From NCBI RefSeq assembly GCF_003334355.1, contig NZ_QOWP01000021.1: a stretch of 64,000 bases of DNA; one strand, given 5' to 3'. The first letter of the stretch is position 1, and each line of letters starts with the position of its first letter. The notes beneath the pieces were generated by a model that ran no database searches, had not been told where the DNA came from, and was given only the letters and a program-made list of their open reading frames with translations. Origin of the DNA: Escherichia coli. Lineage in GTDB: Bacteria; Pseudomonadota; Gammaproteobacteria; Enterobacterales; Enterobacteriaceae. The translations under genes and the position numbers were made by a program. Positions 3,794-40,142 of this stretch are shown here, piece by piece.

Positions 3794-4176
3794 AATTCGG
3801 TTACTCCTTTACGAACGTTTTCGATATCGCTTTGCGTACCCATGAGTTCAAAACGGTACAGCCACGGCACGCCGCATTTCCGGGCAATCACATCTCCGGC
3901 GCGGCCATACGCCTCACCAAAGTTGCGATTACCAGAAGCAATAACGCCGCGAAGCAACGCCCGGTTGTGCTCGTCGTTTAAAAAGCGAATTACCTGTCGT
4001 GGCACCGCGCCAGCCGTACCGCCGCCGCCGTAAGAGGGCACGATCAGGATGTAAGGCTCGTCTACCTGAATCCGTTCCCGCTCATTGAGCGGGATGCGCA
4101 CCGCGGGCAGACCTAAACGTTCGATAAAACGCTGCGTGTTTTCGGAGCTGCTGGAGAAGTAGACGAGCTGGCTCAT
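3766..4176 (-). CDS. nrdI: Flavodoxin-like protein NrdI
   Basis: 136-aa [20 protein letters not shown]...; overlaps nrdE start by 28 nt and nrdH stop by 4 nt. Confidence 0.95.
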
Positions 4177-4418
4177 GCACTGGCCGCGTGTGGCGCTGGA
4201 TGCAGACGGTTAATCATGTCCGGACGGAAACCAGACCAGCTAAGATCGCCAGCAATCACTACCGGCAACTGACGAAAGCCCTGAGCACGCAACGCTTCTG
4301 CCGCTTCAGGAACGCGATCGACATTAATCATTTCAAAATCAAAGCCCCGGTTTTCCATCGCCCGTTTGGTGGCGTGGCACTGAACGCAATCGTTACGAGT
4401 GTAAATAGTAATGCGCAT
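4173..4418 (-). CDS. nrdH: Glutaredoxin-like protein NrdH
   Basis: 81-aa [29 protein letters not shown]... with CVQC redox motif; first gene of the nrdHIEF operon. Confidence 0.95.
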
Positions 4419-4665
4419 GATTCGTATTTCCGTTTAAAATGAAGATACGGCGCGATGATACGCGTCGGGTTGTCTCTCTGTTGATACAGAGATACTAGAT
4501 GTAGTTGAAAAAAGATTCAACCACACAATATATAGCAAATAGTGGTCGAAATTACCCTGGATATGAGCGTGACGGGGTAGGGGGATTTTTGTGATTCACC
4601 AGGCAAAAAGAAACCCCGAAGACAGGCTTCGGGGTCAAAGACGCGTATTTATTATCATTTTTGCA

Positions 4666-19292: not shown

Positions 19293-19368
19293 GGCCCTTT
19301 AGCTCAGTGGTTAGAGCAGGCGACTCATAATCGCTTGGTCGCTGGTTCAAGTCCAGCAAGGGCCACCA
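19293..19368 (+). tRNA. ileY: tRNA with CAU anticodon (ileY-type tRNA-Ile2 / annotated Met-like), 76 nt with encoded CCA
   Basis: GGCCCTTTAGCTCAGTGGTTAGAGCAGGCGACTCATAATCGC...GGTTCAAGTCCAGCAAGGGCCACCA; 7-bp acceptor stem pairs, anticodon loop CT-CAT-AA, T-loop GGTTCAAGTCC. Confidence 0.9.
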
Positions 19369-34075: not shown

Positions 34076-35017
34076 ATGGATGCACTGCATGTCGCGCTTG
34101 AAAATCTGATTAGAGATGATGGTCAAACACTAAATAGTTATTTTAGTGAAGTTAAAGTTAATTCATTGATTGAAAATACAAATGCAACTTGTCATTTTCA
34201 TTGCCTTAATCTTGATGGCAATGGACGTCCTCGGGTAGACGCGTTAATCCAATTCTTGAACGATAAAGTAGTTGATTATGCTATTCCAAGGAAAAAAATC
34301 AATGAGGCAGTGCAATATTTTAATGAAACACAATCAACAGCGAAAATAACAAAATTAGCAAATCAAGCAAAAAGATTATTTACTAGGCTTGCAAATAGTG
34401 GCGAAGGCGGTGAATTTATCCTTTTTTTATTTGCAGAGCAATTCCTTAGATTTCCACAAATTATTTGCAAAATGAGCCTGAAAACGAGTTCTCAAATGCA
34501 TTACCATGGTGCAGATGGAATACATATAGGCGTAGATAAAGATAATAAAAAATTATGTTTATACTGGGGCGAGTCTAAACTCTATTCCAGTCTGAGCAAA
34601 GGTATTTCTGAGTGTATGGATAGTATAGCTCCATTACTTCAAAGTTCTATGGGAATAGAAGGCGCTGAGACACGTGATATGCAGTTGCTGGAGTCGCACT
34701 TAAATGTTGATGATATAGAACTAGAACAAGCGTTGAAAAGATTCTTAGATCCTGATAGCCCGGATTTTAATAAATTGGAATACAGAGGAATATGCTTAGT
34801 TGGGTTTGATCTTAAAGATTATCCACAAGGGCCCAGTTCAATTGATATCAGTGAACTAGTTGCTTTGATTAATACTAAAGTCGGGAAATGGTCAACTAGT
34901 GTGCAAGGTGGTATAGTTAATAAAAAACTTGATCGCTTTGCTATGCATGTTTTTATTCTTCCTTTTCCTTCAGTAAAAGCATTTAGGGCTAGTTTAATTA
35001 AAGCATTGGAGAGTTGA
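34076..35017 (+). CDS. Nuclease-like protein with D...ExK-type motif; HamA-like (DUF1837-type) candidate, component A of a Hachiman-like defense pair
   Basis: 313-aa AT-rich ORF; HYHGADGIHIGVDKDNKKLCLYWGESKLY (about 34508-34578) fits a PD-(D/E)xK-like catalytic signature; stop sits 1 nt before the helicase start. Confidence 0.55.
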   Translation: MDALHVALENLIRDDGQTLNSYFSEVKVNSLIENTNATCHFHCLNLDGNGRPRVDALIQFLNDKVVDYAIPRKKINEAVQYFNETQSTAKITKLANQAKRLFTRLANSGEGGEFILFLFAEQFLRFPQIICKMSLKTSSQMHYHGADGIHIGVDKDNKKLCLYWGESKLYSSLSKGISECMDSIAPLLQSSMGIEGAETRDMQLLESHLNVDDIELEQALKRFLDPDSPDFNKLEYRGICLVGFDLKDYPQGPSSIDISELVALINTKVGKWSTSVQGGIVNKKLDRFAMHVFILPFPSVKAFRASLIKALES

Positions 35018-35018
35018 A

Positions 35019-37601
35019 ATGTCGTTGCGAGATTTATCTGGGTGGTTGATTAAGAATCAAGGATTCTTAAGAAAATATCAGGCATTAGTCGCTAACTCGA
35101 TAAAAGATCAATTTCCAGAGTTAAAATCAGATGTAATCCCACAGATTAGTTCTGAGGATGTCGGCTATCTTTTAACATGTGCTAGTTCTTTGGCTTTCTC
35201 AAGTGATGAGAAATGCCAAGATGCAGCCTTAAGGATTGCACAGTATTGCTTATTGAATGAAAAAAGTGAAGCAAGAAAAGATAGTGCTGCATTAATTCTT
35301 GATTCATTATCTAATAATCCAGCAATACAACTTGCTGAAAATAGGGGGTATCTTAACCCTGATTTCGAAGAAAGATTACCCTTAAAGGCTCAGTTAGAAC
35401 TAACTAAAAGAAAAATTCTATATACAATTGAAATAGATGCTGATAAGCATATTTATGCTAATAGGTTTCAATCAGAGTTTTGGGATGCGGTACAAGAAAA
35501 CTCATGGGTTAGTGTCTCTGCTCCCACCTCTGTAGGAAAATCATTTATCCTGGAATCTTGGGTGGAGCAGTTTGTAAAAAGAAATAAGAATTGCTTAGTT
35601 ATTTATATCGTACCAACAAGGGCATTGATTTCAGAAGTATATTCTGAGTTGCAAAAACGTTTGGATCCTAATTTAACAAATATAGTTAATATTCAGACAC
35701 TACCATTGAGTAATGTATACCAGAGCGAAAAATCTAATGTCTTCATATTTACACAGGAAAGATTAAATTTATTCTACAATCATTTCTCACAAATTCCAAA
35801 GATAGACGTCTTAGTTGTTGATGAAGCACACAAGATCGGTGATGGTGGAAGAGGTGTTATTCTTCAACATGTAATTGAACTGACTTGTCTAAATAACCCT
35901 GATTCAAAAGTTATCTTTGCAAGTCCTTTCACCTTAAATCCTGAAATATTGCTCAGTGATGCTCCAATATTAAAAAACAAAAGAACTATAAAAAGTGACT
36001 ATGTTACAGTTAATCAAAATTTAATATGGGTAGAACAAAAACCACGCAAGACCAAAGATTGGTTGATGTATTATTTTGCAAACGGTGAAAAACGCGAGTT
36101 AGGAAACTTTTCTTTAGAAAATGCACCATCTCCTGAAAGTAAAAGATTGCCTTTTGTAGCTCTTTGTTTAGGTAAGGGGGCTTCTGGTAACGTAGTTTAC
36201 GTAAATGGAGCCGCTGAAGCAGAATCTACTTCCAAGCTAATATCTGCAAGTATAGAAAATGAGACTGAGGATGAAGAAATTTTAGCTCTCGTTGAGCTTA
36301 GTGAGACAATTATACATAAAAATTTCGCATTAAATCGCACTCTAAAAAAGAGAGTCGCTTTTCATTATGGCAACATGCCTTTAATAATAAAGGGCGAGAT
36401 TGAACGATTGTTTAGTAAAGGTAAGATTGATTTTTTAATTTGTACCTCAACTTTAGTTGAGGGCGTAAACATGGCTTGTAAAAATATTTTTATAAGAGGC
36501 CCTAAAAAGGGTAATTCAACCCCGATGCGAGAAGAGGATTTTTGGAATCTTGCTGGCAGAGCTGGTCGTTGGGGAAAAGAATTCCAAGGTAATGTCATCT
36601 GCATCGATAGCGACAATGAAAAAATTTGGAATGGAGAGCCTCCAAAAACCAAAAAAAATATATTTATAACTCGCGCCACGGATGCTATTTCCCATGACAT
36701 GGATAAGTTGGTTTCCTATATTTTTTCAGAGCATCATTTTGGTATGTCTGAGCGGAATCCTAATCTCCAGAGTCTATTTAGTTATTTATGTTCATCATTT
36801 TATTTTTATAATGGCTTGGATAATAATCCTTACATGGAAAAGTACAATATAAAAAATATCGATGTTTTAAATGAAGCAATATTTGATGTTTTTGATTCTT
36901 TAACTTTTCCACACGAATTGGTTGTGCGGCATCCTGGTATAAGCCCGCTTTTAATGCAAAACCTTTGGGATAGATTTTCGCGGGATACAAACAAACCTGT
37001 AGAGAGATTACTGCTTTCTGAACCTGGTAGTAATGATGCGTTAGATTCATATGTATCCGCATTCTCTAGAATTAGTGATACTCTGAGTAAGAAGCTAGGT
37101 TATAATTCAAAAGGAGCTTACGTACAGGCCTTGCTAGTTTCCAAGTGGATGAAAGGTTATCCCCTAGCAAGATTGATCTCGGATAGAATAAGATATAACA
37201 AAAAGAAAAATATTGTTTTCAAAGAAGCGACTTTAATACGAGGGGTTATGAAGGATGTTGAAGAGATCGCTCGCTATCAAGCTCCAAGGCTTTTAGGATG
37301 TTATAATGATTTATTAAAAAGCTTTTATCTTTCGATAGATCGCACAGACTTAGCAAAAGATGTTGAAGATATCGGTGTTTATTTAGAACTAGGTGTAAGT
37401 TTAAAAACTCAGATTTCACTAATAGGGCTTGGCTTTTCAAGAACTGCTGCTGTAATGATTTCAGAGCTTATTCCTAATGATAGTTTAGATGAGGAAGAAT
37501 GCATTAATTGGATTAAGGACAATAAAGTTGACATGGAAGAACTGCCACAATTAGTTCAAAACGAAATACATAATATATTTCGTAACTTTTGGGTACAATA
37601 G
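35019..37601 (+). CDS. SF2 DEAH-box helicase; HamB-like candidate, component B of a Hachiman-like defense pair
   Basis: 860-aa ORF with motif I APTSVGKSF (about 35521-35547), motif II VVDEAHK (about 35815-35835), motif VI LAGRAGRWG (about 36551-36575), followed by a roughly 300-aa C-terminal extension. Confidence 0.6.
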   Translation: MSLRDLSGWLIKNQGFLRKYQALVANSIKDQFPELKSDVIPQISSEDVGYLLTCASSLAFSSDEKCQDAALRIAQYCLLNEKSEARKDSAALILDSLSNNPAIQLAENRGYLNPDFEERLPLKAQLELTKRKILYTIEIDADKHIYANRFQSEFWDAVQENSWVSVSAPTSVGKSFILESWVEQFVKRNKNCLVIYIVPTRALISEVYSELQKRLDPNLTNIVNIQTLPLSNVYQSEKSNVFIFTQERLNLFYNHFSQIPKIDVLVVDEAHKIGDGGRGVILQHVIELTCLNNPDSKVIFASPFTLNPEILLSDAPILKNKRTIKSDYVTVNQNLIWVEQKPRKTKDWLMYYFANGEKRELGNFSLENAPSPESKRLPFVALCLGKGASGNVVYVNGAAEAESTSKLISASIENETEDEEILALVELSETIIHKNFALNRTLKKRVAFHYGNMPLIIKGEIERLFSKGKIDFLICTSTLVEGVNMACKNIFIRGPKKGNSTPMREEDFWNLAGRAGRWGKEFQGNVICIDSDNEKIWNGEPPKTKKNIFITRATDAISHDMDKLVSYIFSEHHFGMSERNPNLQSLFSYLCSSFYFYNGLDNNPYMEKYNIKNIDVLNEAIFDVFDSLTFPHELVVRHPGISPLLMQNLWDRFSRDTNKPVERLLLSEPGSNDALDSYVSAFSRISDTLSKKLGYNSKGAYVQALLVSKWMKGYPLARLISDRIRYNKKKNIVFKEATLIRGVMKDVEEIARYQAPRLLGCYNDLLKSFYLSIDRTDLAKDVEDIGVYLELGVSLKTQISLIGLGFSRTAAVMISELIPNDSLDEEECINWIKDNKVDMEELPQLVQNEIHNIFRNFWVQ

Positions 37602-37693
37602 TCTTATTTAGACGATTTTTTAAACAATCAATAGAGAAGTTTTTGAATTTTATCATTCTTCCAGTAACAAAAACTTCTCTTTTATAACACCGC

Positions 37694-38152
37694 TCAGGCT
37701 ATTCCAGAATAGGCTTTGCTTACTTCACTATGCCTTGTGCCGCAATGCCTCAAAATAACAAGGCCATGTTGCAGTAACGCCTCACTACGTTCAGGTTCAA
37801 ACCATTTCCCGTTAAATTTTCCTCCGTGAAAAAGATTGTTTCTTACACGGCGGATTAACAAAAAAAGAAATTTTGCTAAATCTTTTTCTTGTGGTAAAGA
37901 ATCATCCCAAACTAAAGAGTCATCTTCTATGATTTGTTTTTTGGGTGGGTGTTCTTTAAAGTAGGTGATAGCAGCAATTAGCTCTGGATCAGTTGTGTTA
38001 TTTATGATTTCAGAAACTTGCTTTGCATACTCATCCCAGTTCGCTTTAGCATCTTTTATTTTATGATGAAGTCCACATGCCTTAAGGCAATATTCGTAAC
38101 GTGAAAACTCTCTAAAGAATTCATAACATAAATTATCTAGATTATTCTCCAT
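37694..38152 (-). CDS. Small HEPN-like protein candidate (Rx4H motif), possible abortive-infection/toxin-type RNase
   Basis: 152-aa ORF with GGAG RBS; motif RRVRNNLFHGG (about 37823-37855) fits the HEPN R-x4-6-H signature; divergent from the helicase gene and adjacent to int. Confidence 0.45.
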   Translation of the reverse strand: MENNLDNLCYEFFREFSRYEYCLKACGLHHKIKDAKANWDEYAKQVSEIINNTTDPELIAAITYFKEHPPKKQIIEDDSLVWDDSLPQEKDLAKFLFLLIRRVRNNLFHGGKFNGKWFEPERSEALLQHGLVILRHCGTRHSEVSKAYSGIA

Positions 38153-38181
38153 GAACTATATCTCCATGTATAACAAGTTAA

Positions 38182-39381
38182 CTAATATTGATTGCGCTCG
38201 TACACTTTTTGGCCCCACCAATTCATAAGTCCTATTCGTTGCTCAAGGTAAGTTGAACGATTATATGCTCTGCGCACTTCATTTTTATCACTATGTGCAA
38301 GAGCAGCCTCAATTACATCTGCATTAAAACCCGCTTCATTTAATGCGGTGCTGGCAATTGAACGCAATCCATGAGCAACCAATCTACCACCAAATCCAAT
38401 CCTTTTTAAAGCAGCATTTGCCGTCTGGCTATTCATTGGTTGCTTTGGGTCATTCCGACTCGGGAAAACATGTTCACGATGGGCACTGATTAGCTTCATC
38501 ACATCAAGAATCTCTAATGCCTGAGGAGATAGAGGGACTATGTGTTCCCGCTTAGCCTTCATTCGTTCAGCTGGGATAGTCCAGAGCTTTGCATCGAGAT
38601 CGAGCTCAGCCCACCTAGCACCGGAAGCCTCAGAAGGACGAACTAGAGTCAGGAGTTGCCACTCAATGAGGCAGCGAGTCGGAACAGACAAATTTGACAT
38701 GACGAGAGAACGCATCAGCATAGGCAATTCTTCTGGGCGCAACGTAGGCATATTTTGTTTTTTTGGCTTCTCAAAGGCCATTCCAATGCCTGATGCTGGA
38801 TTGGCATCAATAAGACCAGTATTTACGGCATAAATCATTATCTCGTTAACACGCTGCACCAACCGGCGCACCGTCTCCAGCGCCCCACGAGCTTTGATCG
38901 GTTCAAGGGCTTCAACCAGTGTTCGGGCTTTGATTTGCTGGACAGGGATCTCCCCGATGGTGGGGAATACGTCTTTTTCCAGTGAACGCCATATATCTTT
39001 AGCGTAATCATGGGTAACGCTTTTGCTTTTGAGCTGGAACCAGTTAGCGGCGACCGTCGAAAAAATACTGTCCAGAGCGATTTGCTGCTGTTCCTCTGCA
39101 ACTTCAGCTTGAATTTGCGGGTCGATTCCGTTGGCTAATAGGGCAAGGTAATCTGCTCTTAACCCTCGGGCATCAGCAAGAGAAAGGGCAGGAAAAGCAC
39201 CAAGTCCCATCATAGTCCGCTGTTTTGTTGCTGGGCGTTGATAGCGAAAGCGCCAGAGTTTCTTGCCGCTAGTTTTCACTATCAGGAAAAGCCCATCGCC
39301 ATCATGCAGCGTTAGATCCTTCTCTAACGCTTTCGCGCGCAGAACTTCGGTGTTGGTCAGGGGGCGTGTTGTCCGTGCCAC
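38182..39381 (-). CDS. intA: P4-type tyrosine integrase (IntA/SlpA-like), GTG start
   Basis: 399-aa ORF ...HDGDGLFLIVKTSGKKLWRFRYQRP... with C-terminal catalytic HGLRSIASTAL and RRAYNRSTY (Tyr); starts about 185 bp from the ssrA 3' end. Confidence 0.9.
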   Translation of the reverse strand: MARTTRPLTNTEVLRAKALEKDLTLHDGDGLFLIVKTSGKKLWRFRYQRPATKQRTMMGLGAFPALSLADARGLRADYLALLANGIDPQIQAEVAEEQQQIALDSIFSTVAANWFQLKSKSVTHDYAKDIWRSLEKDVFPTIGEIPVQQIKARTLVEALEPIKARGALETVRRLVQRVNEIMIYAVNTGLIDANPASGIGMAFEKPKKQNMPTLRPEELPMLMRSLVMSNLSVPTRCLIEWQLLTLVRPSEASGARWAELDLDAKLWTIPAERMKAKREHIVPLSPQALEILDVMKLISAHREHVFPSRNDPKQPMNSQTANAALKRIGFGGRLVAHGLRSIASTALNEAGFNADVIEAALAHSDKNEVRRAYNRSTYLEQRIGLMNWWGQKVYERNQY

Positions 39382-39400
39382 TGTGGCCGCTCCTTCATGA

Positions 39401-39456
39401 ATTGGTATACGCTTTTAGGTATACATCCTACCGTATACCTAAACGTATACCAATAA
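39401..39456. promoter_or_regulatory. 56-bp palindrome in the int upstream region (candidate Int arm-type/operator sites)
   Basis: ATTGGTATACGCTTTTAGGTATAC ... GTATACCTAAACGTATACCAAT: the two 22-24 nt arms are near-perfect reverse complements; one arm recurs at 27210-27231. Confidence 0.45.
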
Positions 39457-39493
39457 TCATCGGATTTAGCCGGATGTTCTCGGACAACGACAA

Positions 39494-39530
39494 ACACAAA
39501 AAAGCCCGCAGGGCTTGTGCCATGCGGGCT
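39494..39530 (-). terminator. Rho-independent terminator downstream of ssrA
   Basis: On the minus strand gcccgca...tgcgggc hairpin followed by cttttttgt, about 35 nt past the tmRNA CCA end. Confidence 0.6.
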
Positions 39531-39565
39531 TTCTGTACTTCACCGGACGTATCCGGATCATTATT

Positions 39566-39928
39566 TGGTGGAGCTGGCGGGAGTTGAACCCGCGTCCGAA
39601 ATTCCTACATCCTCGGTACTACATGCTTAGTCAGTCTTTACATTCGCTTGCCAGCTGCGGACGGACACGCCACTAACAAACTAGCCTGATTAAGTTTTAA
39701 CGCTTCAACCCCAGGCAGGGCTTCCACGCGATCTCTTTTGGGTTTGACCTCTCTTGATCCCCGTCCTAAGAGCGGAGGCTAGGGAGAGAGGGCTCTAAGC
39801 AGGTTATTAAGCTGCTAAAGCGTAGTTTTCGTCGTTTGCGACTATTTTTTGCGGCTTTTTACGAGGCCAACCGCCCCTCGGCATGCACCTTGGGTTTCGC
39901 AAATCCCGTCGAATCCAGAATCAGCCCC
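39566..39928 (-). ncRNA. ssrA: tmRNA (SsrA), 363 nt
   Basis: Reverse complement reads GGGGCTGATTCTGGATTCGACGGGATTTGCGAAACCC...tag-peptide region...GGACGCGGGTTCAACTCCCGCCAGCTCCACCA, the E. coli tmRNA with tRNA-like ends. Confidence 0.95.
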
Positions 39929-40142
39929 AATGTGTAAAGGTAAGTATACCAGATTTATGAGCGCCATGACCAGCCTCAATGGCGTTATCGTTAAAGATTT
40001 AGCACCCATGTAGCCTGATTTTTATTCGATTAAGCAATGGGATGGCAACATTTGTGTCGGATGTGATAGCCAATAAGATGTTCATTCGCGCCGCCGGAGA
40101 GGGAGGCGCGGTGAGGAACTGGTCAATAATTGGAGTGCAGGT

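Follow-up and report, generated by a model that had tools for sequence, protein, structure and literature searches.

Probable integrase arm-type sites at both ends of a Hachiman-carrying P4-like satellite in ssrA of Escherichia coli

The imperfect inverted repeat in front of the integrase gene int (39401-39454) and its distal copy (27210-27231) are very probably the arm-type sites of Int, namely the P' and P arms of the attP of a P4-like satellite. The window analysed here is a stretch of 64,000 nucleotides from the E. coli contig NZ_QOWP01000021.1 (assembly GCF_003334355.1). The island in it is a 12.4-kb P4-like satellite that carries Hachiman and lies between ypjA and ssrA, the tmRNA gene (39566-39928, minus strand). 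In the proposed explanation, the circular form would have the two arm blocks ~210 bp apart, flanking a core that copies the ssrA 3' end, and integration would be a crossover in this core that separates the blocks by 12.2 kb. The N-terminal domain of Int would bind the (T/A)GGTATAC sites, four of them near int as two inverted pairs (A + B and C + D) and two at the far end, and core binding would fall to the catalytic domain. A recombination complex would then form as arms and core are bridged, probably with the aid of DNA-bending proteins, and excision would probably be helped by a Vis/AlpA-like protein of the element. This design is the ordinary, well-known P4-type attP/Pint arrangement and reveals no new mechanism; what is new is the recognition sequence of the arm sites. 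The analysis provides the exact ends of the element and a complete attP map (two arms, core, candidate excisionase sites and predicted int promoter; Table 1), which serves a common E. coli family of P4-like satellites with defence systems, here Hachiman.

Table 1. Positions of the arm sites, cores and neighbouring features in the window, with the corresponding annotations of P4 (X51522).
Feature	Sequence or motif	Position	Strand	Remark	P4 counterpart
Inverted repeat, left arm	ATTGGTATACGCTTTTAGGTATAC	39401-39424		direct reading	
Inverted repeat, centre (8 bp)	ATCCTACC	39425-39432		direct reading	
Inverted repeat, right arm	GTATACCTAAACGTATACCAAT	39433-39454		direct reading	
P' arm site A	TTGGTATAC (int strand)	39445-39454	-	holds the -35-like TTGGTA (39453 to 39448)	3954-3965 (-)
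P' arm site B	TAGGTATAC (int strand)	39433-39441	-	12 bp past A, inside the promoter spacer	3942-3953 (-)
P' arm site C, inverted, weak		39417-39424	+	around the predicted transcription start	
P' arm site D, inverted	ATTGGTATAC	39401-39410	+	predicted 5' leader, 20 bp upstream of the int GTG	3915-3926 (+), overlaps the int start
Predicted Pint -10	TAGGAT	39425-39430	-	palindrome centre, 17 bp past the -35	
Candidate excisionase repeats (three, 10-bp phasing)	YCGGAY	39460-39485	+	adjoin the arm sites	same triplet and position (3972, 3982, 3992)
Element-supplied hairpins and terminator, downstream of ssrA		39496-39556	-	missing from empty-site strains; terminator-like site at 39516-39502 plus T run (minus strand), hairpin at 39543-39556	
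Core, attL-type junction, intact ssrA 3' end	TGGTGGAGCTGGCGGGAGTTGAA	39566-39588	-	element-type sequence starts to the left	4078-4097
Displaced degenerate core copy	GCTGGCGGAGTCTGAA	27140-27155	-	from empty sites (L002, L003) and the intact attP of L038	
AT-rich spacer, core to P arm		27156-27209		length conserved (~52-54 bp), sequence not	
P arm, two tandem arm-type sites	ATTGGTATACGCTTAGGTATAC (int strand)	27210-27231	-		4151-4162 and 4163-4174 (-), then crr and alpha
crr-like replication iterons	TGTTCAC / GTGAACA	27316-27398		between the P arm and the primase terminator, outside attP	resemble the 'ori type 1' repeats in crr (4291-4590)
Alpha-like primase-helicase, last gene of the element		27456-29840	-	ORF and RefSeq annotation of near-identical loci	
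int, P4-family tyrosine integrase, 399 aa		38182-39381	-	GTG start; SD AAGGAG at 39390-39395	

Direct reading of the sequence located the inverted repeat 20 bp upstream of int. A reading of the DNA made from the sequence alone had described it as a 56-bp palindrome; the inverted repeat is real, but it spans 54 bp and its arms are imperfectly complementary. The 22-nt arm consists of two tandem (T/A)GGTATAC sites. The spacing of the GGTATAC heptamers is 14 bp in the left arm and 12 bp in the right arm, so that a 2-nt indel distinguishes the two. The distal copy, GTATACCTAAGCGTATACCAAT, is oriented like the right arm and is identical to it at 21 of 22 positions (22 of 23 with one extra base), exactly as had been noticed, except that its distance from the primase stop at 27456 is 225 bp instead of the ~210 bp given before.

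To determine the ends of the island, the window was compared with two strains in which ypjA is directly followed by ssrA, ZYB39 (L002) and strain 1506 (L003). In these empty-site strains, window positions 27140-27144 are joined straight to 39557-39566, the alignment resuming at 39557, and the empty site reads ...CCAATCATGATTGG TGGAGCTGGCGGGAGTTGAACC.... The left junction of the window reads ...CCAATCATGATTGG, followed at the junction by CTGGCGGAGTCTGAATTTG..., and at the right junction element-type sequence ending in ...GGATCATTATT precedes the intact ssrA 3' end, which starts at 39566. This comparison places the island at ~27141-39565. The empty-site check that the sequence-only reading had proposed thus put the junctions just outside both motifs (~27140/27141 and 39557-39566). 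The motifs had been thought to delimit the element. They are indeed near both of its ends, but they lie 70 bp (left) and ~100-110 bp (right) inside, and the sites are therefore not themselves the element boundaries.

A duplicated tmRNA 3' end had not been seen by eye near the left junction; nevertheless, a degenerate copy exists there, at 27140-27155. It was found by the empty-site alignment only, and a direct-repeat search (seed 8, minimum length 14) missed the duplicated core because the copy is degenerate. The displaced core reads GCTGGCGGAGTCTGAA as against GCTGGCGGGAGTTGAA in ssrA. Relative to the expected recombinant it is without TGGAG (TCCAC on the RNA strand, 5 nt), and GCTGGCGG alone, 8 bp, is identical between both junctions. 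The core is accordingly the 3' end of a tRNA-like gene at junctions that agree with the empty site, with a degenerate copy in the window.

The arrangement before integration can be seen in a circular relative. Relatives were collected as 80 IMG/VR loci (~1.1 Mb) with Int proteins 84-100% identical. The L038 sequence (IMGVR_UViG_2600255186_000010) is a contig of 10,182 bp. Its two ends fall within the primase gene and connect in frame, so that the contig represents a whole circular P4-like genome, perhaps an episomal or excised form picked up in the assembly of an isolate. Upstream of its int are found crr iterons, ATTGGTATACGCTTAGGTATAC, 52 bp, TTCAGACTCCGCCAGCTCCACCA, a terminator, the palindrome, the SD and the GTG. 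One motif is thus present on both sides of the core, and the distal pair, the intact core and the palindrome are contiguous in one attP of ~300 bp. The distance between the starts of the two pairs in L038 is 210 bp, the same value as that obtained by joining the window ends at GCTGGCGG.

Throughout the 80 loci, the dyad was confined to three kinds of place: position -70 relative to int, the far end 7.5-11.1 kb downstream, and the junctions of tandem arrays. On the proximal side, sites A, B, and D hardly vary among relatives, and C is often degenerate. Among 56 distinct relatives, site A is invariant with the exception of the co-varying GTGTACC type described below, and site B is GGTATAC in 54 and GGTACAC in two. 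Site C has become GTATGCC, GTATCCT, GTGGTCC or other forms, and no compensating change is seen in site B. Because many relatives have a weak or degenerate site C, a palindrome is not in itself a requirement. The P arm site is kept in 25 loci although its flanks diverge.

The arm repeats were compared with those of P4, for which the reference sequence X51522 carries the annotation 'attP arm sequence repeats' after Pierson & Kahn 1987. In this comparison, which the sequence-only reading had proposed, their number, orientation, and spacing match almost base for base: a tandem pair and an inverted site are located at int, and a second pair is located across the core. The tandem pair is 112 bp from the core in P4 and 112 bp in the window (39454 to 39566), the core is 53 bp from the second pair in P4 and ~54 bp in the window, and in both the second pair is oriented as the core-proximal pair. 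P4 and the window share the order int - P' arm - core (tRNA-like 3' end) - P arm - crr - alpha, of which the iterons of the window mark the part att - crr - alpha, and the P4 flanking DNA is recognisably homologous to the window flanks (AAATCCGGAT...). The window has one unit of the crr-like iterons, compared with two 120-bp-like units in L006 and L089. In contrast to the layout, the arm motif differs, being TTGGGGGCAYAT (also given as TTGGGGGCA) in P4 and (T/A)GGTATAC in the window. The two elements also differ in target (leuX in P4, ssrA in the window), in the number of inverted sites (one in P4, two in the window, C and D), and in cargo (Hachiman in the window), and the window Int is 32-42% identical to P4 Int.

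Further elements share the layout but have motifs of their own. CP4-57 of K-12 (IntA/AlpA) is a P4-like prophage at the same ssrA/ypjA insertion site, and its left junction sequence is the element-type sequence of the window up to ~27186. Its IntA is 57-63% identical to the window Int and its arm layout is that of the window, but its motifs are TAGGCCCA next to int and TAGGACCA / TGGGACCA at the far end. Its displaced ssrA 3' end is damaged too, with 1 nt missing as compared with 5 nt in the window. Phage phi467 has the layout of the window with its own motif, GGGACCC-type near int and GGACCA-type across the core. The KplE1 IntS/TorI system (Panis et al. 2010, PMC2951348) and the lambda Int arm/core paradigm resemble the design proposed for the window element, with a heterobivalent integrase and arm sites that overlap the int promoter and therefore confer negative autoregulation; they differ from it in integrase lineage, target (argW), and site arrangement. 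Klebsiella phage Kp4865-2, the Int of which is 59.5% identical, has a palindrome TTTTAGGCACC...GGTGCCTAAAA at int, but the repeat across its core, TGGCGACAGA twice, is not obviously the same motif, and the ssrA segment involved is longer. This phage was left out of the supporting evidence.

The int strand reads ATTA-TTGGTA-TACGTTTAGGTATACGG-TAGGAT-GTATACC..., and a promoter of int, Pint, is predicted here. TTGGTA lies within site A and the 17-bp spacer contains site B. The -10 variants in the 56 distinct relatives are TAGGAT, TAAGAT, TAGAAT, TAAAAT, TATACT, and TATAAT, in which T1, A2, A5, and T6 are invariant. A consensus promoter scan at a threshold of 9/12 returned no site in the region; the manually selected candidate TTGGTA-17-TAGGAT scores 8/12 and was missed by the generic scan because it falls below this threshold. 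The predicted promoter is proposed on the basis of its comparative conservation, and CP4-57 has an equivalent, TTGATA-17-TATTGT, between its sites. The att regions contain no perfect match to the IHF consensus WATCAANNNNTTR, and hence no IHF site is claimed.

With the -35 in site A, site B in the spacer, the -10 at the centre and sites C and D over the transcription start and leader, the int promoter would be buried in the P' arm, so that Int, once bound there, should repress its own gene. From this position of the predicted Pint within the sites, int is likely to be negatively autoregulated, as in P4. The part of PMC7286903 that deals with P4 states that Int represses its own promoter Pint (citing Piazzolla 2006), and that Vis likewise represses Pint and an IHF site has been reported there (citing Piazzolla 2006 and Calì 2004). 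Overlap of the int promoter with attL, together with autoregulation, is widespread (PMC2951348), and such repression by Int has been reported for P4-like integrases other than that of P4 as well (PMC7286903, PMC2951348). The suggestion that the repeat serves as an operator for int has thus gained in plausibility from the conserved -10-like hexamer at the palindrome centre, the -35-like hexamer inside a site, and the parallel with this account of P4.

The arm motif co-varies with the integrase. GTGTACC is found at A, B, and D in L083, L085, and the second element of L015. One element of E. coli PKF8 (L089) carries GGTACAC at A, B, and D as well as at both distal sites. Between its Int and that of the window, identity is 67% over residues 1-95 and 87-90% over the rest. 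P4, CP4-57, and phi467 have their own motifs, as described above. GTATACC and GTGTACC thus form a natural specificity pair tied to changes in the arm-binding domain of Int, which could aid the study or engineering of integrase specificity.

These results bear on whether the repeats bind another protein of the element instead of Int, for which the Vis/AlpA-like excisionase and an immunity regulator are candidates. Among the genes of the element is one for an excisionase-like HTH protein, GTATAC itself is a 6-bp palindrome that suits a dimeric HTH protein, and the P4 account cited above (PMC7286903) includes repression of Pint by Vis. We nevertheless regard this explanation as improbable, since the sites agree in number, orientation, and spacing with what is labelled in P4 as Int arm repeats, and since, in a comparison that covered Int, the GTATACC and GTGTACC types diverge mainly in the arm-binding domain of Int. 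Moreover, the separate YCGGAY repeats that adjoin the sites and are common to P4 are better candidates for excisionase binding. Repeats with 10-bp phasing are the usual pattern for excisionase (Vis/AlpA) sites, and we take the YCGGAY repeats as candidate sites of the Vis/AlpA-like protein, the assignment to Vis being putative. The stretch 39543-39558 was noted together with these repeats. The earlier proposal that arm sites were split to the two ends on integration agrees with the empty-site junctions, the L038 attP with its spacing of 210 bp, the P4 layout, and the co-variation at both ends.

It is very unlikely that the palindrome works as a nucleic-acid hairpin (a terminator or attenuator after ssrA, an int leader structure, or a cruciform) and that the distal copy is incidental. 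Pairing of the arms is possible over 11 + 8 bp, and the repeat has a terminator on one side and a start codon on the other. However, 10 broken pairs versus 2 compensatory pairs were counted in the inner helix (B:C) across 12 distinct site combinations, and the sole 'compensatory' change belongs to the GTGTACC type, in which the distal pair, outside any hairpin, is altered as well. In addition, the internal spacing of the arms is unequal, and P4 and CP4-57, with one inverted site as against two, do not form a hairpin. Even less credible is a role of the repeats as replication iterons for the alpha primase-helicase (ori or crr function). The distal copy lies close to the crr-like region that follows the primase gene, but the P4-type iterons (TGTTCACC) are separate from it and of other sequence, and the proximal copies are at the int promoter, far from ori.

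The abundance of the motif was also evaluated. With up to three mismatches, the 22-mer was found at two places in the 64 kb, both of which are the known blocks, and shuffles expect 0.00. GGTATAC heptamers number 11 in the window against a whole-window expectation of 3.6, and six of them are within the proximal and distal blocks. A probe of 30 nt from the right arm matched 577 of 5426 complete E. coli genomes at a median of two and a maximum of four places per genome. The motif is thus not common elsewhere in the genome, a possibility that the sequence-only reading had raised against itself. Chance similarity or a generic dispersed host repeat, which the short unit (22 nt) and its two loci in the window might suggest, has a negligible probability in view of these counts and of a position relative to int and the element end that is fixed in 80 loci. 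A lone GTATACC at 39944-39950, 16 bp upstream of the ssrA 5' end, is host sequence that is present in the empty-site strains and appears to be coincidental.

Damage to the displaced core is not limited to the window. All 25 E. coli-type distal junctions examined (including L005, L006, and loci within L011-L089) are damaged right after CCGCCAGC; one T is gone in K-12 and many others, and elsewhere 3 to ~10 nt are deleted. Intact cores were found in the circular L038 attP and in four GTGTACC-type junctions, so that a one-T deletion as a universal mechanistic outcome was rejected. Excision of CP4So, a P4-like prophage in ssrA of Shewanella oneidensis, is reported to leave SsrA minus one U (PMC5148205), and this U is the same base as the T missing from the distal core of K-12 CP4-57. 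The TCCAC lost from the window copy corresponds to most of the 3' strand of the acceptor stem and the first C of CCA. The window copy may have lost the ability to excise, and its sites would then be mere relics here. A more speculative idea, which we hold with considerable doubt, is that, if the element does still excise, a crossover in GCTGGCGG would deprive the tmRNA gene of a usable 3' end and that the module of arm sites and promoter would act as an 'ssrA-off' switch. If true, this would be a reversible-to-irreversible switch and a stronger version of the one-U deletion of CP4So. Alternatively, the recurrent lesions could mark the cleavage point of Int and reflect selection for locked-in satellites with defence genes.

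The int product belongs to the tyrosine recombinases and has an arm-DNA-binding domain at its N terminus. Pfam assigned Arm-DNA-bind_3 (PF13356) to residues 8-92 (E = 1.2e-21), Phage_int_M to 107-198, and Phage_integrase to 213-378, and the protein matches the phrog_1 integrase. The region 26900-39600 is 99.7% identical to loci in 15 E. coli genomes among the matches listed, and at least 80% of it is covered in 18 E. coli genomes. RefSeq annotates at the 99.7% loci the primase, DUF5375, an Icd-like protein, an HTH regulator, two Psu-like proteins, Ogr/Delta, HamA, a DEAD-box helicase, a hypothetical protein, and the integrase. The core gene set of P4-like satellites is therefore present in the P4 order (int ... 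psu, delta ... alpA/vis, alpha), and the ORF of the excisionase-like (Vis/AlpA-like) HTH protein was confirmed at 30899-31159 on the minus strand. Hachiman was detected at 34076-37601 (plus strand) with HamA of 313 aa and HamB of 860 aa (PADLOC, E = 1.7e-135 and 0, respectively).

Hachiman occupies a variable hotspot between delta/psu and int, in which relatives have different cargo: SIR2 + ATPase, AAA + HNH, or DUF262 + methyltransferase. Between HamB and int there is an ORF of 152 aa (37694-38152, minus strand) that gave no match in PADLOC and corresponds to phrog_19013 (unknown function, E = 1e-93). Tandem arrays at ssrA were observed in L001 (strain EC07), L015, L045, L011, and others. A P2-like prophage is inserted between ssrA and the satellite in EC07, and in other strains GTATACC-type elements are arranged head to tail with GTGTACC-type or CP4-57-type elements, with hybrid junctions. 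Outside the island, ARAGORN assigned 19293-19368 as tRNA-Met with a CAT anticodon; the equivalent gene in L006 is tRNA-Ile in RefSeq, and it may be a CAU-anticodon (lysidine-type) tRNA-Ile.
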